The position numbers and the translations under genes were made by a program. 42,197 nucleotides of DNA from Escherichia phage altidsur: sequence record MN850568.1. One strand, given 5' to 3'. Of this stretch, positions 8,735 through 31,519 are shown in pieces (positions within the stretch are counted from its first letter, which is position 1; each line of letters begins with the position of its first letter). The notes below the pieces were generated by a model, which had not been told where the DNA came from, searched no databases, and saw nothing but the letters and a program-made list of their open reading frames with translations.

Positions 8735-9223
8735 ATGAAACTGTCTCGGCTAATGGCCGGGGCAGTCCTCTCATTGTCACTGACATTGACGGGCTGCTCC
8801 GCAACTAGCGCACTGTCTGCTGTAACTTCGGCTGTCTCTCCCAACAAGCCGGAACTCACGGCGCAAGTCGGTGCAGAGAATACGAAGCAAGGTATCGGTG
8901 TGACTGCGAAACAGTCCGACGAAACAAAGGTCGGTGACGTATCAGGTAACGCGAAAGTGGATACCGCTAAGCAGGGTTCGAATGGCACTTCCGTCAAGGA
9001 CGTTACAGGAGGCTCTGTAAACGCTTCTAAGCAGGGGTCGCAAATGACCCAAGGAAACGTACAGGCTCGCACAGTAATCGTCTCACAGAGCGACCCACGC
9101 AGTCTCCTGTGGGCTTTCGGCATGGGCCTTACATGTATCCTTGGTTTAGTCATGTGGTTTGTACCATCTCCGTGGAAAAGGAAAGTGAAAGATGACGGAA
9201 GCAAAGAAGGAGCCAACTCCTAA
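8735..9223 (+). CDS. Lipoprotein with C-terminal transmembrane helix; unimolecular spanin (u-spanin) candidate
   Basis: N-terminal signal peptide ending in a lipobox (LTLTGC), Thr/Ser/Gly/Lys-rich extended middle, C-terminal hydrophobic helix (LLWAFGMGLTCILGLVMWFVP) followed by a charged tail; located directly upstream of the endolysin. Confidence 0.55.
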   Translation: MKLSRLMAGAVLSLSLTLTGCSATSALSAVTSAVSPNKPELTAQVGAENTKQGIGVTAKQSDETKVGDVSGNAKVDTAKQGSNGTSVKDVTGGSVNASKQGSQMTQGNVQARTVIVSQSDPRSLLWAFGMGLTCILGLVMWFVPSPWKRKVKDDGSKEGANS

Positions 9224-9575
9224 CATCCACTCGCGTATGGGTGCAGTGGAGGCTCGTATGCAATCCGTAGAACTTCGACTCGACAAGCACGAGGTACAAA
9301 TCGCCACCCTTGAAAAAGGCGACGCTGCAATGCTGGCCAAGCTCGCGGAGAACGATACCCGCTGGCAGACCGTTCAACAGCAGCTCCTTGTGGTTGAGCA
9401 AATTCAGGACATTCAGAAGACTATGAGCCATATCGGTAAGCTGTTTACGGCGGCGGCTCACGCTGTCAAATGGTGTCTCTTAACCGCATCCCTGTGTAGC
9501 GGTATCTACTTAGCGATTAAGGCTGGCGACCTCACGGCTCTCCAGTCCTTTATCACAACGATTATGGGGATGTAA
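9192..9575 (+). CDS. Lysis-cassette membrane protein with N-terminal coiled coil and single C-terminal TM helix (holin/antiholin/spanin-like candidate)
   Basis: ORF between the lipoprotein and the endolysin; heptad-like N-terminus, one hydrophobic helix (WCLLTASLCSGIYLAI); TAATG coupling to the endolysin start. An alternative start at 9237 would avoid overlap with the upstream gene. Confidence 0.5.
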   Translation: MTEAKKEPTPNIHSRMGAVEARMQSVELRLDKHEVQIATLEKGDAAMLAKLAENDTRWQTVQQQLLVVEQIQDIQKTMSHIGKLFTAAAHAVKWCLLTASLCSGIYLAIKAGDLTALQSFITTIMGM

Positions 9576-10111
9576 TGACTAACTTTGAAATCTGTATGCG
9601 GTTCACCGGGCTGGCAGAAGGCGGTTACGCCAACCTGCCCGGAGACACCGGAGGGGAAACGAATCATGGAATTAGTGACGCTCGTGATGGAAAGCTGGAT
9701 GGTAGAGCTTGCGGTGTCCCTACTGGGCTTGGCGGCACTATTTGTGTGCCTATCCGCAACCTCACCAAAGCGCAAGCCGAAGCAATCTATCGACGGGACT
9801 ACTACAGCCCCATCCGAGGTGACGAGCTTCACCCTGCGATTGCATGTGCCGTGTTCGACTACGGCGTTAACTCAGGTGTCTCCCGTGCGGCGAAAGCTCT
9901 ACAGCGGGTATGCGGCGTTGCACAAGACGGGGTTATTGGCCCTGCTACCGTGGCAGCAGCCAAACGTCTGGAACCTCACTCCGCAGCAGCAGCCATCTGT
10001 GACCTTCGTATTGCGTTCCTAAAGGCTTCTACAGCCCCGACAATCGTTCGGTATAGGGATGCCTTGGTAGCTCGTGCAAAACGCTGTAGCGACTACTGTG
10101 CGACGCTGTAG
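9575..10111 (+). CDS. Endolysin, GH108-type muramidase with C-terminal peptidoglycan-binding-like region, 178 aa
   Basis: N-terminal motif LAEGGYANLPGDTGGETNHGIS and downstream IYRRDYY match the GH108 signature (EGG...DPGG.T..GI...YxxDYW) read by eye; no N-terminal TM/SAR segment. Confidence 0.8.
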   Translation: MTNFEICMRFTGLAEGGYANLPGDTGGETNHGISDARDGKLDGRACGVPTGLGGTICVPIRNLTKAQAEAIYRRDYYSPIRGDELHPAIACAVFDYGVNSGVSRAAKALQRVCGVAQDGVIGPATVAAAKRLEPHSAAAAICDLRIAFLKASTAPTIVRYRDALVARAKRCSDYCATL

Positions 10112-10320
10112 GGGCTATCGAAAGCTGGAGCATTGAACAGGCCGTGGGGAGCAATACCCCCGGCTTGAAAATTGCATGTTTATAGTTGCCCCTCCCTCGA
10201 CCCAAATGACCGCGCGTACCCCCATGACGTGTGCGCGGATTAGCCTCGCGACGTGCGCGATATTGCCTCGCGTGTGCTGCGCGGCGCGTCAAGAGGATTG
10301 CCTGCGTGCGGTATAGCTCG

Positions 10321-10710
10321 TGCGTGTCGCGTTTCACTATCGCCGCGCGGTGCTGTCCTGCTGGCTGGCTGTGTGCCTGCTGTGTGGGCTATCGGTGGCG
10401 GTGTGGTGCTGTCCTATTGGGGACGCTCTGCGCTGGCTGCGTGGTGCTGCTGGCTGCGCGTGGTCGGTCGGGTATCTGTCTCTTTTCGTCGTGGTGTGTG
10501 GTGCTGGTGTGTAGCGGTGTGCGGCGTGGTGCTGCCGTCCTGCTGTGTGGTGTGCTGGTCTACTGTCTGCGCCTGCCAGCTCTGCGCGTCATGCTCTGCT
10601 ACTGTCTCTTACTGTCCTACTGCCTTCACTGTCTGCCGTCTGTCAGTCCTACGGTCTGCCATCCGTCATCCGTTCGGCGCTCGCTTGTTTCGGCTGCGCC
10701 GCGCTCGCTC
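10321..10710. other. A-depleted (G/T/C-only) strand-asymmetric tract; candidate genome-terminus / terminal-repeat-associated region
   Basis: By manual count roughly twenty A residues in ~390 nt on the + strand. Because every stop codon contains A, all three + frames stay open, which produces the overlapping Cys/Arg-rich ORFs in the track. Sits between the last late gene and the early promoters. Confidence 0.6.
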
Positions 10711-10730
10711 TGCGTATCTAGCGATACTAT

Positions 10731-10752
10731 ATCACTATAGACACTTTCATAA
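10731..10752 (-). promoter_or_regulatory. Copy of the 22-bp phage promoter-like motif ATGAAAGTGTCTATAGTGATAT, inverted; + strand reads ATATCACTATAGACACTTTCAT
   Basis: Reverse complement is identical over 22 bp to 31211-31232; contains the CTATAG core reminiscent of the CACTATAG core of T7/SP6-type promoters. Confidence 0.45.
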
Positions 10753-10757
10753 TTATC

Positions 10758-10856
10758 TAATGATTACAGTAACTTATAACCTATCTGATAACGGTATTCT
10801 ATCCAGTGTTATGATTATCTAATCAAACTTTAATCCTAATGATTACAGTAACTTAT
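10758..10856. repeat. AT-rich direct repeats (20-bp TAATGATTACAGTAACTTAT at 10758-10777 and 10837-10856, plus duplicated ATTATCTAA)
   Basis: Exact 20-bp duplication 79 bp apart, read directly, immediately downstream of the A-depleted tract and the inverted promoter-like motif. Confidence 0.6.
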
Positions 10857-10877
10857 CACTTTTCTTGAAAATAATAC

Positions 10878-10907
10878 TTGCCAATCTGTTTTGGTTTATG
10901 CTGTAAT
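10878..10907 (+). promoter_or_regulatory. Host sigma70-type promoter candidate (TTGCCA-N18-TGTAAT)
   Basis: -35-like TTGCCA at 10878-10883 and the same TATGCTGTAAT -10 box as the next two promoters. Confidence 0.35.
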
Positions 10908-10984
10908 TCATCTCGCCGGACAACACAGCGTTAACGTGTTGGACGGTGTAGGACGGTAACACTGCTCTTTAACAATCTGGTGTG

Positions 10985-11013
10985 TTGACAAGGCAAGCTC
11001 ACTATGCTGTAAT
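10985..11013 (+). promoter_or_regulatory. Host sigma70-type early promoter (TTGACA-N17-TGTAAT)
   Basis: Perfect -35 TTGACA at 10985-10990, 17-nt spacer, TATGCTGTAAT box; one of three identically spaced copies upstream of the early region. Confidence 0.55.
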
Positions 11014-11121
11014 GCTTCCACGTCAGCCAGCAAGCTAAACAGTCATTGATAAAGACGTTAAAACACACGTAGGCAAGCTGGTACGGTTTAACTATCTCAG
11101 AACGGGCGCTGATTAAATCGG

Positions 11122-11150
11122 TTGACAGGATGAAATGAGTATGCTGTAAT
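11122..11150 (+). promoter_or_regulatory. Host sigma70-type early promoter (TTGACA-N17-TGTAAT)
   Basis: TTGACA at 11122-11127, 17-nt spacer, TATGCTGTAAT box at 11140-11150. Confidence 0.55.
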
Positions 11151-11201
11151 GCACACCAGATTGACAGGGCAGCAAGCCAGTCAGTCAGAAGTAAAAAGTA
11201 G

Positions 11202-11230
11202 TTGACACGCTGAATACGATGTGATGTAAT
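11202..11230 (+). promoter_or_regulatory. Host sigma70-type early promoter (TTGACA-N17-TGTAAT)
   Basis: TTGACA at 11202-11207, 17-nt spacer, GATGTAAT box at 11223-11230. Confidence 0.5.
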
Positions 11231-11687
11231 CAGCACCGAGTTGAAAGGTTGCAAAACAACCTGCTCTGAGTGAACGTAAACTGGCCACGTAGTGTCACGG
11301 TCTCATGGGTATCCGGCGCAGCTAGGAACTGGTGAGAGGCATCGCTGAAAAGCAACGGTATTGCAACAATGCTAACGCCGTAGGGGTAGTGCCTGATGCA
11401 AGGGAACGGAGAAGCGCGATAGACACAGCGCAGTATCAGTAAAATCCCAAACGTCTTATAAGGCGCGGAGTGAAGCGGGTAGGTAGGCAAGCTGGTAACG
11501 GTGAGCCGGACTGCTGGAGGACTCCTGAGAGTGGATGCAGACAATATCCACGGCGCGAAATGGGCGGGGCGATTTTTCAGGGTAGTGAATCCGACAAGCC
11601 AATCAATGCCACTTAGTGCAACATGTACGGCGCGTCACAATGGGTTCACTATCCACCTGAAAATAGCCAACAACTGGAGAAATAACT

Positions 11688-12080
11688 ATGTACCGTATCT
11701 ATGCAAGCGCATATCGTCAGGGCAACGCTGAATGTGTTAATCTGGCGCTTCATTGCAAGGCACTGCGAACGGTGCAGGATATGTTCGGAGTGGTTCCGGT
11801 CACACTGACAGGCAAGTTCGACAATGCGTACGAGTTAAGCATGGTCTTTCCTGTCGATGGAATCTACGAAATCAGGCAGGCTGTTAAGCTGTTCTGTAAA
11901 GCATTCGAACAGGACTGCATCATGGTAGTGACCAAAGATGATGATGCAATCTTCATGGATTCACCATATCCGGGCAAGCCTGCTGGCAAGTTCGTCAGCA
12001 AGACTGAGGCCGAAATGGAAGCCGGGCAGCACACCGCTTGGACTTACGATGGTGAACAATTTTGGGTAGTGGAGGCGTAA
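11688..12080 (+). CDS. Early hypothetical protein, 130 aa
   Basis: First ORF after the ~450-nt leader; GGAGA RBS 8 nt upstream of the ATG. Confidence 0.55.
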   Translation: MYRIYASAYRQGNAECVNLALHCKALRTVQDMFGVVPVTLTGKFDNAYELSMVFPVDGIYEIRQAVKLFCKAFEQDCIMVVTKDDDAIFMDSPYPGKPAGKFVSKTEAEMEAGQHTAWTYDGEQFWVVEA

Positions 12081-12081
12081 C

Positions 12082-12156
12082 ATGTTTACCGCACTGTGTG
12101 TAGTAGCGGCGGCCTGCTGGGTCATTGACCAGCGACTGAGCCGTCGCCGTGGCTGA
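12082..12156 (+). CDS. Tiny hydrophobic peptide (24 aa, MFTALCVVAAACWVIDQRLSRRRG)
   Basis: ATG 1 nt after the upstream stop, with a strong GGAGG RBS 6 nt upstream; hydrophobic N-terminus with basic tail; not in the ORF track because of length. Confidence 0.3.
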   Translation: MFTALCVVAAACWVIDQRLSRRRG

Positions 12157-12217
12157 TAGCCTATAGCGTCCTGCGGGGCGCTATGTGAAATCAACCAACC
12201 TGACAAGGGGTACTACC

Positions 12218-12748
12218 ATGACAACTGCAATCAAATACACTAGCTTCAAAGACGCTGCCGCTCTGGACAAGGCCATTGAGTCTACCGTCAAGAAGGCGCA
12301 CTCACTCCGTAGCGACATTCAGAACGTTGCGGTCGGCATCATCCTGCACGCTTACCATCACGGCGACTACACTCGTGCTGAATCCTTCGTGAATCAGCTC
12401 GGTCAGGGTATCCGTGGTAAGGCGCTGGTAGACTGGTTCGTCAAGTTCGGCGGCCTGATTATCGGTGAGAACGGCGGGAAACAGGGCTTCATTGGCTGGC
12501 AGGGCGCTGAGTATATCAAGGCGAACATTGACACGGCCAAAGCCACTATGTGGTGGAGCCTGAAACCTGAGCAGGCGTTCGAAGGTTTCGACCTGCAAGA
12601 TGCGCTCGAAAAGCTGATTGCCAAAGCTGAGAAGGCGCTGAACAAGGCGAACGAACTGCGCCACGAAGGGAAGGACGAAGACGCGAACAAGGTTGTCGTT
12701 CCGCAGAACGTGCTGGATGCACTGCGCAAGGCTAAACAAGCTGCGTGA
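12218..12748 (+). CDS. Early hypothetical protein, 176 aa (Lys/Ala-rich C-terminus)
   Basis: ORF with AAGGGG RBS before the internal ATG at 12218; the track ORF begins 33 nt earlier at 12185. Confidence 0.6.
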   Translation: MTTAIKYTSFKDAAALDKAIESTVKKAHSLRSDIQNVAVGIILHAYHHGDYTRAESFVNQLGQGIRGKALVDWFVKFGGLIIGENGGKQGFIGWQGAEYIKANIDTAKATMWWSLKPEQAFEGFDLQDALEKLIAKAEKALNKANELRHEGKDEDANKVVVPQNVLDALRKAKQAA

Positions 12749-12755
12749 TTACTGA

Positions 12756-12778
12756 CAGGCCATTCACTGAGTGGCCTG
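12756..12778 (+). promoter_or_regulatory. Intergenic RNA hairpin (CAGGCC-loop-GGCCTG); candidate RNase III/processing or attenuation site
   Basis: 6-bp perfect inverted repeat with 11-nt loop between two early genes. Confidence 0.35.
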
Positions 12779-12813
12779 AATTGTAACCACACATCAACCC
12801 AAAGGGGCATAGC

Positions 12814-13092
12814 ATGACTTTTAAAGCTGTAGACACTCGCACCAAACCGCTGGCACACTCTTTCCCGGCAGCACTGATGGGAGGCCAGCTCACTGGCACC
12901 ATCGTAGCGACCATTGACGACACTGGCCGCATCGACATCAAGGAAGGCGCGGAGAACCTGCCGCACTTTGCTCAGAGCCGTGACATTCTGGACGAGTCCG
13001 GCGACTTCCTGTGGCTGGTCGATGAAGACCAAGGCACCGAATGGGATGGCACCGTTCGCTGGGGTCGTCAGGAAGACTTCGAAGTGGCATAA
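12814..13092 (+). CDS. Small acidic early protein, 92 aa
   Basis: ORF preceded by a hairpin and AAAGGGG RBS; Asp/Glu-rich with acidic C-terminus (EDFEVA). Confidence 0.6.
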   Translation: MTFKAVDTRTKPLAHSFPAALMGGQLTGTIVATIDDTGRIDIKEGAENLPHFAQSRDILDESGDFLWLVDEDQGTEWDGTVRWGRQEDFEVA

Positions 13093-13106
13093 GCCGGGAT
13101 TGACTC

Positions 13107-13130
13107 AAGCCAGTGTCAAGGCGCTGGCTT
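13107..13130 (+). promoter_or_regulatory. Intergenic RNA hairpin (AAGCCAG-loop-CTGGCTT), part of the repeated hairpin + GGCAAT..TGCC module
   Basis: 7-bp perfect stem with 10-nt loop, followed by GGCAATTCTGCCCCAACC, RBS and ATG. Confidence 0.4.
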
Positions 13131-13168
13131 TATGGCAATTCTGCCCCAACCTATTCGGAGTATTATCC

Positions 13169-13450
13169 ATGACTATCAAAACTGTAACTGCATTCGTGAC
13201 CAAGAAAGCTGGCGAACTGTATGGCTTCGCTGTTTCCCTGAACGAAGGCCAGTACCTGCACCACGTTCGTGAAGAAGGCGAGCCGACTGAGGCCGTAGCC
13301 ATCCTCGAAACGTTGCAGGGTATCCCGCTGCCACACGAGTTCATCATCATGCTCGCTGAGCAGGACGAAGACGACCTGCGACTGCGCCACGGCGACGACC
13401 TGACGATTGAAGAAATCGGCACGTTCGAAGCAGAAGTAGACGACGAGTAA
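13169..13450 (+). CDS. Small acidic early protein, 93 aa
   Basis: Internal ATG of track ORF 12914..13450, chosen because the upstream part overlaps the preceding gene; GGAG RBS; acidic C-terminus (EAEVDDE). Confidence 0.6.
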   Translation: MTIKTVTAFVTKKAGELYGFAVSLNEGQYLHHVREEGEPTEAVAILETLQGIPLPHEFIIMLAEQDEDDLRLRHGDDLTIEEIGTFEAEVDDE

Positions 13451-13460
13451 GCGTTGTCCT

Positions 13461-13484
13461 GCTGCATCCTTGCGAGGGTGCAGC
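13461..13484 (+). promoter_or_regulatory. Intergenic RNA hairpin (GCTGCATCC-TTGCGA-GGGTGCAGC) of the repeated module
   Basis: 9-bp stem with one G-U wobble and loop TTGCGA, followed by GGCAATAATGCC box. Confidence 0.4.
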
Positions 13485-13521
13485 GTGGCAATAATGCCTT
13501 ACTCAATCTGAGGGTTTTAAT

Positions 13522-13863
13522 ATGAGCATCAAACTTGTAATCCTGACCAACATCGCAGCTTCCGCATTCGGCGCAGACGTACCGGAAGAAGCGCGTACTG
13601 CTGAGTGGGTGGCGTTCACCTCCGACGACGAGGGCTACCTGATTGCAGGCCGCAACCGCGACGGCGACTCTGCCGAGGACATCGTGGCGCACTTCGACGC
13701 TGACGAAGGCTTCGCTGGGTTCGCAGCTTCTGGCCTGCCGCTGGAACTGTTCGGCATGATGAACGGCGTGCCTTTCATCGACCGTGAGAAGCTGGGCGCA
13801 GACGTGTCTGTCACCGAGCTGAAAGTGTACGGCGAAGAAGATGACGTAGACTTCTCTGCGTGA
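13522..13863 (+). CDS. Small acidic early protein, 113 aa
   Basis: ORF after the conserved module (ACTCAATCTGAGGGTTTTAATATG); strongly Asp/Glu-rich. Confidence 0.6.
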   Translation: MSIKLVILTNIAASAFGADVPEEARTAEWVAFTSDDEGYLIAGRNRDGDSAEDIVAHFDADEGFAGFAASGLPLELFGMMNGVPFIDREKLGADVSVTELKVYGEEDDVDFSA

Positions 13864-13869
13864 TACCTT

Positions 13870-13893
13870 ACTGCCTCGTTGCGACGGGGCAGT
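13870..13893 (+). promoter_or_regulatory. Intergenic RNA hairpin (ACTGCCTCG-TTGCGA-CGGGGCAGT) of the repeated module
   Basis: 9-bp stem with one G-U wobble and the same TTGCGA loop as 13461-13484, followed by GGCAATCATGCC box. Confidence 0.4.
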
Positions 13894-13928
13894 GCGGCAA
13901 TCATGCCCCAACCTACTGAGGATTTAAT

Positions 13929-14204
13929 ATGTCCACTATCAATGTGTTTTCCCTGAACAACGGCGGTCTGGCTTTCATCGTTGGCGAGACTGTTGACAAT
14001 GCACCTTCACTGGGTGTGCAGCCGAAGCCGGACGCAAGCCATGACGAAGTGATTGGCGAAGTGCGCGAGGCGCTGGAAGACCTCGGCGGTATGCTGATTG
14101 CCATTCAGGGTGGCAAGCTGTCGGTTGAAAAGCTGAATGCACTGGAGCCTCGCTTCATCACCAGCTTTGAAGCTGACAACGTAGACGCGGCTGACTTCGA
14201 GTAA
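13929..14204 (+). CDS. Small acidic early protein, 91 aa
   Basis: ORF after the conserved module (CCAACCTACTGAGGATTTAATATG); acidic C-terminus. Confidence 0.6.
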   Translation: MSTINVFSLNNGGLAFIVGETVDNAPSLGVQPKPDASHDEVIGEVREALEDLGGMLIAIQGGKLSVEKLNALEPRFITSFEADNVDAADFE

Positions 14205-14483: not shown

Positions 14484-14507
14484 CAGCCCATCCATAGCGG
14501 TGGGCTG
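14484..14507 (+). promoter_or_regulatory. Intergenic RNA hairpin (CAGCCCA-loop-TGGGCTG) of the repeated module
   Basis: 7-bp perfect stem with 10-nt loop, followed by GGCAATCATGCC box, RBS and ATG. Confidence 0.4.
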
Positions 14508-14544
14508 TAGGGCAATCATGCCACAACTAACTGAGGGTTTTACC

Positions 14545-28749: not shown

Positions 28750-31182
28750 GTGGACTTACTTGCTGAGCAGATTCGACTTGAAGAAGAAGCACGAGCCAGA
28801 CACCGCGAGGGCTGGCTGGACAATATCAAAGAAGCCATGGCTAGTGGCCGGGCCGGGTCGGTGCCGTTGCTCCAGCGTATGATGGTAGAGGCGTATCCTC
28901 TTGTCGAAGCTGCGATGCAAGAAACCCTGAACGAAACGACCCGTGGGTACGGTGCGCAGTACCGGACGTACATGCGTGAGATTGGCACCAAGGCGTGTGC
29001 CTCTCTTGCACTGAGCATGGCGGTGTCCGGTGCTGCGTCGGAGCAGGCGGTGCTGAGTCTGCTTAAGAGTATGGGTAAAGCGCTGATGGCTGAGGTGGTG
29101 TATCTCCGGGCGAAGCAGACCGGGCCACAGCAGGCAGCGTACATGGAGCGCGTGAAGCAGGACGTTAAGAAGTCCCGGTCGAAGTCAGCCAACCACGTCT
29201 ACAACAAAGCGCGTGCGTCGGCGGCGAACGTTGGGGTCGAGATTGATGTGCTGCCGCAGCGTGCTCTGATTACCATTGGCAAGCTGATGATGAAATGCGT
29301 GGAGCCAACTGGGTTGGTGGCTACGATTCGCGTCGGCGGCAACCAACGTCAGCGCGGTACGGCACACTTCGCACTGCATGAGGATGTGCTGGCTACGATG
29401 AACGACTGGCTGGACATGCCGCGTGCTGATGGCATGTGCTGCCCACCGTTGATTATCCCACCGAAGCAGATTGCACCGAACGGTCGCAGCGGTATGTGGC
29501 ACTCGGATGGGCAGGCGGCGATGTACCGGGTAATGAGTCGCATGAACCACAAAGGGTATCGTGCATTGAACGTTGACCCGACCCCTGTTATAGAGCCGTG
29601 TATGATGCTCAGCAGCGTTCCGTACCGAATTAACCCAATGGTACTGGAGTTCCTGAGAACGAACCGTACAGGCGTTATGGGGCTGCCTGTGCCGCCTCGT
29701 GAGCCTAAGCTCCCATTCACCATCCCGGCTGGTGTCAGCTTCGCGCAGTACATCAGCAAGTTCCCACCAGAGATGCAGCAGCAGATGGATGCCGAGGCTC
29801 ATGAGTACAAGGTTAAGACTCGCTTGTATTACAATGAGTTGCGTAAGTTCACGTCGCAGATGCTGGCGCTGAATGGTGCAGTCAAAGAGGCAGAGCGCTA
29901 TGCGCATTATGACCGGGTATACCTCCCGACCTACGCTGATACACGGGGCCGAATTTATTATTCTTCGACCCTTAACCCTCAGTCCATCGACGCAGTGCGA
30001 GCGCTGCTCGAACTTGCTGAACCAGTGGCTCTCGGAAGTGAGGGGTTATTCTGGCTCAAGGTACATGTTGCGAATTGCTTCGGCTACGACGCGACAGACT
30101 TCGAAGACCGGGCGGCGTGGACGGACAAGACACTCCCCCGACTACGTGAGGCGTGCCGTCTTCCAGAGGCATTTGATTCGTTCTGGTCAGAGGCCGATAG
30201 CCCTATCAGCGCGTGGGCTGCATCTGTTGAACTCATTCGCGCTATCGACTCAGGAAATCCTGCGGCTTATCCCTGCCGAGTGGTTACACAATGGGACGCT
30301 ACCTGTTCAGGATTACAGCACCTCAGTGCGATGTTACGAGATGAGGTTGGAGGTGCTGCTGTCAATCTTATCGACAGCGTGGGAAGAAAAGCAGACATAT
30401 ATCTCAAGACGGCAGCAGCGGCGATGCAGGCTCTTGAAGAAAGTGAGGCAGCAGCGCCGACGCAAATGGGTACGTGGCTTGTTAGCATCGGCATCGTTCG
30501 GGCTATGGCCAAGAAGCCAGTGATGACCTACGTGTACGGGGCAACCCGGCATGGTATGGTTGATTACTACTGCCTGTATCTGCGTGAGAACCGGGTCAAG
30601 CTGCCGGACGGCAAGAGCCTGCTGGAGTGTGCGCAGTTCATCGCAGAGTTCATGTGGAACGCTATCCCTCGCGTTGTGCCGAAGGCGGCTGAGCTGATGG
30701 CATGGTTGCAGGCTATCGCAGTTGAGGCGGCAGCCAACGGCGAGTACGTGGAAATCATCGCACCGTCAGGGTTGCGGGTGGTTAACCTGTACCAAGCCAG
30801 TAAGGAGACGATGCTCAACAACATCAACCTCATGGGTATCCACAGCATTAAGCTGCGTGAGTATCTGGACAAGCCGGACAGCCGGAAGTGTGCTGCTGCG
30901 ATTGCTCCGAATTTCGTACACGCTATGGATGCCAGCCACATGATGAAGGTGCTGTGGGAGATGTGGAACAACGGGGTGTACATGGTATCCATCCATGACT
31001 CGTTCGGTGTTGCGGCGGCACATGCTGGTCTGCTGCATAAGGTCATTCGTGAAAAGTTCGTACAGATGTATGAGCAACATGACCCAATTCAACAGCTTGC
31101 GGTAAGATACAATGCTGTTGCACCAGAACGGGGTAATCTGGACATCCAGCTTGTGAAACAATCAAGCAAGTTTTTCTGCTAA
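28750..31182 (+). CDS. DNA-directed RNA polymerase, T7-like single-subunit, 810 aa
   Basis: Motif WDATCSGLQHLSAMLRD (compare T7 DGSCSGIQHFSAMLRD) and IHDSFG catalytic motif; GTG start; located directly upstream of the structural module. Confidence 0.9.
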   Translation: MDLLAEQIRLEEEARARHREGWLDNIKEAMASGRAGSVPLLQRMMVEAYPLVEAAMQETLNETTRGYGAQYRTYMREIGTKACASLALSMAVSGAASEQAVLSLLKSMGKALMAEVVYLRAKQTGPQQAAYMERVKQDVKKSRSKSANHVYNKARASAANVGVEIDVLPQRALITIGKLMMKCVEPTGLVATIRVGGNQRQRGTAHFALHEDVLATMNDWLDMPRADGMCCPPLIIPPKQIAPNGRSGMWHSDGQAAMYRVMSRMNHKGYRALNVDPTPVIEPCMMLSSVPYRINPMVLEFLRTNRTGVMGLPVPPREPKLPFTIPAGVSFAQYISKFPPEMQQQMDAEAHEYKVKTRLYYNELRKFTSQMLALNGAVKEAERYAHYDRVYLPTYADTRGRIYYSSTLNPQSIDAVRALLELAEPVALGSEGLFWLKVHVANCFGYDATDFEDRAAWTDKTLPRLREACRLPEAFDSFWSEADSPISAWAASVELIRAIDSGNPAAYPCRVVTQWDATCSGLQHLSAMLRDEVGGAAVNLIDSVGRKADIYLKTAAAAMQALEESEAAAPTQMGTWLVSIGIVRAMAKKPVMTYVYGATRHGMVDYYCLYLRENRVKLPDGKSLLECAQFIAEFMWNAIPRVVPKAAELMAWLQAIAVEAAANGEYVEIIAPSGLRVVNLYQASKETMLNNINLMGIHSIKLREYLDKPDSRKCAAAIAPNFVHAMDASHMMKVLWEMWNNGVYMVSIHDSFGVAAAHAGLLHKVIREKFVQMYEQHDPIQQLAVRYNAVAPERGNLDIQLVKQSSKFFC

Positions 31183-31207: not shown

Positions 31208-31233
31208 TATATGAAAGTGTCTATAGTGATATG
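31208..31233 (+). promoter_or_regulatory. 22-bp phage promoter-like motif ATGAAAGTGTCTATAGTGATAT, flanked by direct repeats of TAGTGATATGTATCA
   Basis: Identical over 22 bp to the reverse complement of 10731-10752; partial copies at 17184-17205 and 31498-31519; lies in the gap between the RNA polymerase gene and the structural genes. Confidence 0.5.
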
Positions 31234-31497: not shown

Positions 31498-31519
31498 TTA
31501 TGAAAGTGTCTACTATGGG
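31498..31519 (+). promoter_or_regulatory. Phage promoter-like motif copy (TTATGAAAGTGTCTACTATGGG)
   Basis: First 13 core positions identical to the 31211-31232 motif; overlaps the first ATG of the next ORF. Confidence 0.35.

Follow-up and report, generated by a model that had tools for sequence, protein, structure and literature searches.

The interval 10878-11230 of the Escherichia phage altidsur sequence (MN850568.1) very probably consists of four tandem, rightward promoters for the sigma-70 RNA polymerase of the host, which together form the early control region of this Bonnellvirus. All positions given here refer to the window, that is, the whole stretch of 42,197 bp that was analysed, which is a circularly permuted Bonnellvirus genome (phiKMV-like Autographiviridae). 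We call the four sites P1 to P4, and their composition is as follows.

10878-10907, plus strand: P1, with the -35 element TTGCCA (10878-10883), an 18-nt spacer ending in TGC (10899-10901) and the -10 element TGTAAT (10902-10907); predicted start at about 10914-10915.
10985-11013, plus strand: P2, with TTGACA, a 17-nt spacer ending in TGC, and TGTAAT; predicted start at about A11020.
11122-11150, plus strand: P3, with TTGACA, a 17-nt spacer ending in TGC, and TGTAAT; predicted start at about 11157-11158.
11202-11230, plus strand: P4, with TTGACA, a 17-nt spacer ending in TGA, and TGTAAT; predicted start at about 11237-11238.

A sequence-only reading of this DNA had described three perfect TTGACA-N17-TGTAAT sites and one TTGCCA-N18-TGTAAT site. 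We found the three exactly at 10985, 11122 and 11202, and the fourth at 10878 just as it had been described. The exact TTGACA-N17-TGTAAT matches are restricted to one 353-bp interval. When both strands of the 42,197 bp were searched, these three were the sole matches even with one mismatch allowed; 0.13 were expected, and three were reached in none of 100 shuffles. In whole-genome scoring against TTGACA/TATAAT, P1-P4 were the best sites, matching at 10-11 of the 12 positions, and the sole sites with TG just before the hexamer. Three weaker sites of this type lie elsewhere in the genome, all of them lacking the TG. The -35 element matches TTGACA at six of six positions in P2, P3 and P4 and at five of six in P1, and the spacers of 18, 17, 17 and 17 bp (P1 to P4) are all within 17 +/- 1, as are those of P1 in the relatives (17 or 18 bp). 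At all four sites the -10 element differs from TATAAT at a single one of the six positions, with G for A at the second (-11), and the T at the last position (-7) is invariant.

The same reading had taken one box to be common to the four sites. This is true of TGTAAT, which is found in all of them, but the longer TATGCTGTAAT is present in only three (10897, 11003 and 11140); P4 has GTGATGTAAT in its place, and P1 of the relatives has TTTGCTGTAAT or TGTGCTGTAAT. The core common to all four sites is TGn followed by TGTAAT, that is, TGnTGTAAT. The TG stands at -15/-14 in every site (TGC three times, TGA once), and the chance of finding it in four of four is about 1.5e-5. As judged from these positions, the conserved box is an extended -10 element, which refines the earlier description. 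A scan for consensus promoters and terminators over 9000-14000 reported none of the four sites; because the scan demands A at the second position of the -10 element it misses P1-P4, and its result is uninformative rather than negative.

Several other candidate elements were considered. TATGCT as the true -10 element was rejected, since its distance from TTGACA would be 12 bp and since P1 and P4 do not conserve it. Leftward promoters resembling T7 A0 were not supported either: TGTAAT occurs on the minus strand at 10768 and 10847 with four of six -35 matches and no TG, and the hexamer is altered in J8-65, smaasur and the LF82-23 type. Likenesses to a Pho-box, a CRP site and a LexA half-site, checked by eye, gave no full sites. 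An orphan fifth TTGACA with no -10 partner is present at 11161-11166 on the plus strand, 11 nt after the -10 element of P3; it overlaps the 3' arm of the RNA helix described below and is kept in 14 of 15 genomes, smaasur having TTGACG.

The position of the cluster in the genome agrees with an early function. All long open reading frames of altidsur lie on the plus strand, and the landmarks are as follows.

Ending at 10111: endolysin, the last gene.
11688-12080, plus strand: anti-restriction SAMase, the first early gene, annotated in relatives, with its ATG at 11688.
From 28750 to the stop at 31182: phage RNA polymerase gene, about 17 kb downstream of the cluster.

One relative, J8-65, has a record that begins at the genome end, with an annotated terminal repeat of 259 bp, and alignment to it places the left end of altidsur near 10198. 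The cluster would then lie about 0.7-1.0 kb inside the left end (at a distance of about 680 nt for P1 and about 1,000 nt for P4), in a 1.5-kb non-coding stretch. That is, it reads rightward and is placed after the terminal-repeat region and before the first early gene, which is the position of the early promoters of T7 and T3. Other good host promoters are absent between the cluster and the phage polymerase gene at 28750. The SAMase of altidsur shares 26% identity with that of T3 over 92 amino acids (E 2e-6), a distant kinship. With a 2-kb query around the cluster, the closest match was Escherichia phage aldrigsur (97% identity), and about 20 further Bonnellvirus phages matched at 84-92%. The hosts of close relatives are E. 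coli K-12, Pantoea, Kosakonia, Cronobacter and Enterobacter, in agreement with the enterobacterial host that had been proposed.

We also observed other features of this genome, which are recorded here in their own right. Just inside the inferred terminal repeat, the segment 10300-10700 is poor in A (AT skew -0.6 to -0.84) and contains degenerate repeats of the GTGCTG type, and 10700-10900 is an AT-rich block (GC 0.26-0.36) with two 30-nt direct repeats, CTAATGATTACAGTAACTTAT..., at 10757 and 10836. The longest exact repeat in the genome is a 23-nt perfect inverted repeat, ATATCACTATAGACACTTTCATA, of which one copy (10729-10751, plus strand) is upstream of P1 and the other (31210-31232, minus strand) is just past the stop of the phage RNA polymerase gene. 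It contains the T7-promoter-like CACTATAG, and ATGAAAGTGTCTA is found again at the start of the open reading frame at 31500. We considered CACTATAG at 10730 as a repeated promoter for the phage polymerase, but its single recurrence is inverted and supports no promoter family. A 39-nt element, GGGCnnnnGGCAATCATGCCCCAACCTACTGAGG, has three copies in the early gene region (13125-13163, 13887-13925 and 14502-14540), which resemble stem-loops adjoining ribosome-binding sites. Restriction-type sites are strongly avoided genome-wide: GCGCGC, GTGCAC, GCATGC, CACGTG, CTGCAG, CAGCTG, GGCGCC, GCCGGC and others are absent where 20-95 were expected, and k-mer counts indicate that GATC and CCWGG are absent as well.

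To describe conservation, we used 15 bonnellvirus genomes (altidsur and 14 relatives), which contain 22 distinct promoter sequence variants. All four promoters are present in 14 of 14 relatives; these phages are closely related, so that the counts given here do not represent independent events. The variable columns of P1 and P4 among the 15 genomes are as follows.

P1: -35 element, 1 of 6; spacer, 11 of 15 (pairwise identity 0.56); TGC, 0 of 3; -10 element, 0 of 6.
P4: -35 element, 0 of 6; spacer, 8 of 15; TGn, 1 of 3 (only the n); -10 element, 1 of 6 (TGAAAT in smaasur).

When P1 and P4 are taken together, 3 of 30 columns vary in the elements and 19 of 30 in the spacers (Fisher p=3e-5). At the level of sequence, this pattern, in which the elements are fixed and the spacers are free, is the one expected of promoter elements. 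Considered together with the rightward direction of all four sites and their place before the first early gene, it supports the earlier proposal that they are early promoters of the host type. P2 and P3 say less about promoter function because their spacers are almost invariant too: P2 is invariant, spacer included, in 14 of the 15 genomes, and P3 has invariant hexamers and 4 variable columns among 14 in the spacer. Their conservation cannot separate promoter function from the predicted RNA helix described below. The TG is invariant over the 15 genomes, and only the n of TGn varies. The promoters are not annotated in any bonnellvirus record examined, nor are they mentioned in the papers on the genus Bonnellvirus that we found.

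We then compared the cluster with the early regions of other phages. In the T3 record, promoter A1 has the -35 element TTGACT (443-448) and the -10 element TATTAT (467-472), followed by tcatctcgtcaac. P1 reads TTGCCA-N18-TGTAAT-tcatctcgcc; its TGTAAT aligns with the TATTAT of T3 A1, and in both phages TCATCTCG (tcatctcg) comes next. Elsewhere, the similarity between P1 and T3 is limited to the boxA described below. The T7 A1-A3 arrangement, to which the sequence-only reading had likened the cluster, is thus a matter of analogy with some real homology, the latter in the alignment with T3 A1 and in the 17-mer of boxA.

The A1, A2 and A3 promoters of T3 and T7 (Studiervirinae) are likewise tandem rightward sigma-70 promoters located at most about 1 kb past the terminal repeat and before the first anti-restriction gene, which in T3, as in altidsur, is a SAMase gene. 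They share with P1-P4 a consensus or near-consensus -35 element and a spacer of 17-18 bp, and the same boxA 17-mer stands in the early leader. The order in T3 and T7 is three tandem promoters, boxA, an RNase III site and the anti-restriction gene, and the arrangement in altidsur matches it in its tandem promoters, boxA and anti-restriction gene, the long helix before the Shine-Dalgarno sequence (see below) being a candidate for the RNase III site. The differences are as follows: altidsur has four promoters instead of three; its boxA comes after P1 only, whereas that of T3 and T7 comes after the whole cluster; its -10 elements all have G at the second position together with TGn, whereas those of T3 and T7 (TATTAT, TAAGAT, TACGAT and GATACT) have no TG; and the leader past the last promoter is about 450 nt, compared to about 175 nt in T7. 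The genome of altidsur is also of the phiKMV-like type, with the polymerase gene about 17 kb downstream, unlike those of T3 and T7. Taken comprehensively, P1-P4 appear from their sequences to be ordinary host early promoters of the T7/T3 type.

A closer parallel to the -10 element itself is found in Pantoea phage LIMEzero (FR751545) of the sister genus Waewaevirus. Two of the three sites that the authors of that record annotated as putative host promoters are TTGTCA-N17-TGTAAT and TTGACG-N17-TGTAAT, and they occupy the equivalent position at the left end, before a homologous structured leader and a SAMase-like gene. Unlike those of altidsur, these two sites are about 600 nt apart and have imperfect -35 elements, and TGn is present at only one of them. 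The third annotated site (928-974, 'putative Pantoea specific promoter') includes the boxA-like GCTCTTTATACAATCTGG and has no TGTAAT, so that it is probably not a promoter but a variant of boxA.

In T3-like contigs of IMG/VR (L121, L059, L058, L021, L043, L057, L060 and L120), the equivalents of A1 have the form TTGAC(A/T)-N14-TGG-(TG/TT/CC/CT)TAAT. Such promoters (for example, in L121, L059 and L058) combine TGG with a base other than A at the second position, followed by agcttccgtcaac, which resembles the gcttccacgtcagc of P2. In these contigs the first two positions of the -10 element vary freely when TGn is present, whereas the bonnellviruses fix TG at all four sites. Among the A1 candidates of T3-like contigs, TGn was found in 9 of 14 with a base other than A at the second position and in 7 of 58 with A (p=1.6e-4). 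Since the non-A base goes together with TGn, the TG extension looks like a compensating feature.

The G at -11 deserves separate consideration. The adenine at -11 is the base that nucleates melting of the promoter. In the extended -10 promoters of E. coli (galP1 type, TGnTATGGT), TG is located one base before the -10 hexamer, and in such classical promoters A is retained at -11 and the -35 element is usually poor. P1-P4 resemble the galP1 type in sequence by the position of the TG, but they differ from it in having a strong -35 element (perfect at P2-P4) and G at -11. None of the 22 distinct variants departs from this G, nor does either TGTAAT site of LIMEzero, whereas the outgroups LIMElight, KP34, GAP227, T7 and T3 have A at this position. 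A single G-to-A transition would make TATAAT, and it is never seen in this lineage. Indeed, neither strand of the genome contains a single TATAAT, although 3.3-9.9 were expected (P 0.04 to 5e-5, depending on the model). The suggestion of the sequence-only reading that the unusual base is selected agrees well with these data, and the G at -11 appears to be a selected feature and a modest but real oddity for promoter recognition. In vitro, a duplex with G at -11 in a consensus promoter gave too little heparin-resistant complex for kinetics (PMC1919498), and P1-P4 could therefore be weak.

There are several candidate reasons for this G. It may avoid a full-consensus promoter that binds the polymerase too tightly; it may give short-lived open complexes, so that polymerases from upstream are not blocked; it may make shut-off easier; or, at P2 and P3 only, it may serve the RNA pairing described below. 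Pairing was rejected as the cause of the G at P1: ATTACAG at 10842 complements CTGTAAT, but J8-65 breaks the pairing and shows no compensation. A stronger version of these ideas is that TTGACA-N14-TGn-TGTAAT represents a distinct, selected grammar, in which the contacts with duplex DNA (-35, TG and T-12) are maximal and the melting A at -11 has been deliberately removed, so that binding would be tight and opening slow or brief. Such a grammar could let polymerases from the upstream tandem promoters pass, could allow fast shut-off, and at P2 and P3 could let the bases double as arms of an RNA hairpin, the G pairing with the C of the partner TTGACA. We regard this idea as rather unlikely.

The RNA that would be transcribed from the cluster contains the following predicted structures.

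10914-10948, plus strand: 5'-terminal hairpin of the P1 transcript, with the outer stem CGCCG/CGGUG.
10973-11010 (at P2) and 11125-11163 (at P3), plus strand: the two arms of a 33-bp imperfect helix in transcripts reading through from P1 (RNAalifold).
11246-11262, plus strand: hairpin AGGUUG-CAAAA-CAACCU, just past the P4 start, followed by the invariant TGCTCTGAGTGAACG.
11231-11687, plus strand: untranslated structured leader of 457 nt, which ends in an interrupted helix (about 19 bp) just 5' of the Shine-Dalgarno sequence.

The 5' hairpin of P1 lies in a 63-nt fold of -20.7 kcal/mol (z -2.9). In the usur-type relatives its outer stem is kept and its inner stem is wholly different (z -3.3), and in the mellemsur type it is weak (z -0.25). 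The hairpin at 11246-11262 shows a compensatory change from U-A to A-U in 6 of 14 sequences. In the 457-nt leader, 24 of the 120 predicted pairs show compensatory changes when LIMEzero is included, and the helix of about 19 bp before the Shine-Dalgarno sequence of the SAMase gene has two compensatory pairs relative to LIMEzero. Because helices with compensatory changes are found just past the predicted starts of P1 and P4, the plus strand is presumably transcribed from upstream of 10973 through the leader, and these modelled helices support P1 in particular. A search of Rfam with 10100-12200 found no family for the leader. A partial match to the Mn riboswitch, on the minus strand inside the SAMase gene, scored 20 bits, where the gathering score is 45, and was attributed to chance.

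The helix between P2 and P3 raises the question of whether these two sites are kept mainly as the arms of a long RNA hairpin in P1 read-through transcripts, possibly a substrate of RNase III, with their likeness to promoters being secondary or incidental. In the predicted helix each TTGACA pairs with the TGTAA of the other site, and the G of TGTAAT thus pairs with the C of TTGACA. In the aligned sequences 99.8% of cells are paired, and sliding the partners relative to each other lowers this to 23-44%. An insertion of 2 nt in the 5' arm has its counterpart in the 3' arm, and all one-sided changes are compatible with wobble pairs. Folds of single sequences gave z values of -3.4 and -3.8, and the invariance of P2 and P3 even in their spacers would also be explained. 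However, no double compensatory substitutions were found among the aligned sequences, and the structure was derived from the same sequences that were used to assess the pairing, so that the modelled evidence for the helix is suggestive. Moreover, the hairpin leaves unexplained P1, P4 and the two sites of LIMEzero, which have the same grammar and hexamer-specific conservation and no such partner, and three perfect TTGACA-N17-TGTAAT matches are very unlikely to arise by chance. We therefore consider it improbable that RNA structure alone accounts for P2 and P3. A dual role for these sites, as promoter and as helix arm, is likelier than that; it is a serious possibility, though we stop short of calling it probable. 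The helix might be an RNase III substrate or a dual-coded element.

Another explanation concerns the register of the -10 element. That is, the TG inside TGTAAT might be the extended -10 motif of a hexamer AATNNN, which would restore A at -11 and put this TG at -15/-14; TTGACA would then be 20 bp away and would matter little. In this register only one of the four sites would have T at -7 and the final three positions of the hexamer vary at P3, and the exact 17-bp distance between the perfect TTGACA and TGTAAT has no explanation. The annotated -10 element of T3 A1 aligns with TGTAAT and not with the shifted hexamer, and the 5' hairpin of P1 begins 7 nt after TGTAAT; both of these favour TGTAAT as the -10 element. 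A shifted register is, in our judgement, very improbable.

It is hardly credible that the repeated motifs are binding sites of a regulatory protein (an early repressor of the phage or a host factor) rather than polymerase sites, because the common unit TTGACA-N14-TGn-TGTAAT has no dyad symmetry and, of its 12 hexamer positions, 10-11 agree with the sigma-70 grammar. The dyad that would be one example of such a site is specific to P4, where an operator superimposed on a promoter, or an RNA hairpin, would explain it just as well. This dyad spans the core of P4 with the arms GCTGAATAC (11209-11217) and GTAATCAGC (11226-11234), which match at eight of nine positions. In Kc261 its arms are GCTGATTA and TAATCAGC (8 of 8 pairs), RZ4 has a 7-bp version, and a further GCTGATTAA is located at 11108.

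Returning to the reading of P1-P4 as host early promoters, we examined the putative antitermination signal that follows P1.

10964-10980, plus strand: boxA of the rrn type, GCTCTTTAACAATCTGG (17-mer), between P1 and P2.

The consensus of boxA is GYTCTTTAANA (PMC5725501), and GCTCTTTAACA at 10964-10974, on the transcribed strand, is its sole exact match in the 42,197-bp stretch. The 17-mer is identical in T7 (813), T3 (781) and GAP227 (428), and it is present in all 14 bonnellvirus loci; in J8-65 it has a single change, C to T, which is still within the consensus. The boxA is conserved, although identity over the preceding 50 nt is only 49%. When IMG/VR was scanned with the 17-mer, at least 120 contigs matched, with no bonnellvirus among the matches listed. 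A second boxA after P4 (GCTCTGAGTGA) was rejected, since it fails the consensus at four positions. Since boxA is located downstream of P1 but upstream of P2, it would be present in the P1 transcripts and in none of the others. Antitermination that depends on boxA shields long untranslated RNAs from Rho (PMC7665894). Such protection, presumably with use of the Nus factors, would fit the 770-nt untranslated leader of P1, and also the finding that no other good host promoter precedes the phage polymerase gene.

From these findings, early transcription of altidsur may be pictured as follows. Once the left genome end has entered the cell, the host polymerase would bind P1-P4 and start about 7-8 nt downstream of each -10 element, near 10915, 11020, 11158 and 11238. 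The strong contacts with duplex DNA (-35, TG and T-12) probably offset the poor melting that is expected from the G at -11. The polymerase would make a structured leader of 450-770 nt and then transcribe the SAMase gene and the other early genes, and boxA may give the P1 transcripts, and only these, resistance to Rho across the long untranslated leader. By analogy with T7, transcription may help to pull the genome in.

If the sites are simply moderately strong promoters, the present result is routine phage annotation. Even so, a genus in which this region is unannotated gains its early transcription start region, and the region is tied by sequence to the early control region of T3 and T7 through the initial transcribed sequence of A1, boxA and the SAMase gene. 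If the G at -11 is required, and not just tolerated, these promoters would provide a natural case that departs from the best-conserved rule in -10 recognition. In the 22 natural variants, G at -11 always occurs together with the TG of the extended -10 element and a strong -35 element. This set offers a clean and cheap test of how far duplex contacts can replace the adenine at -11, and it could show whether these promoters have been adapted to tandem arrangement or to rapid shut-off.
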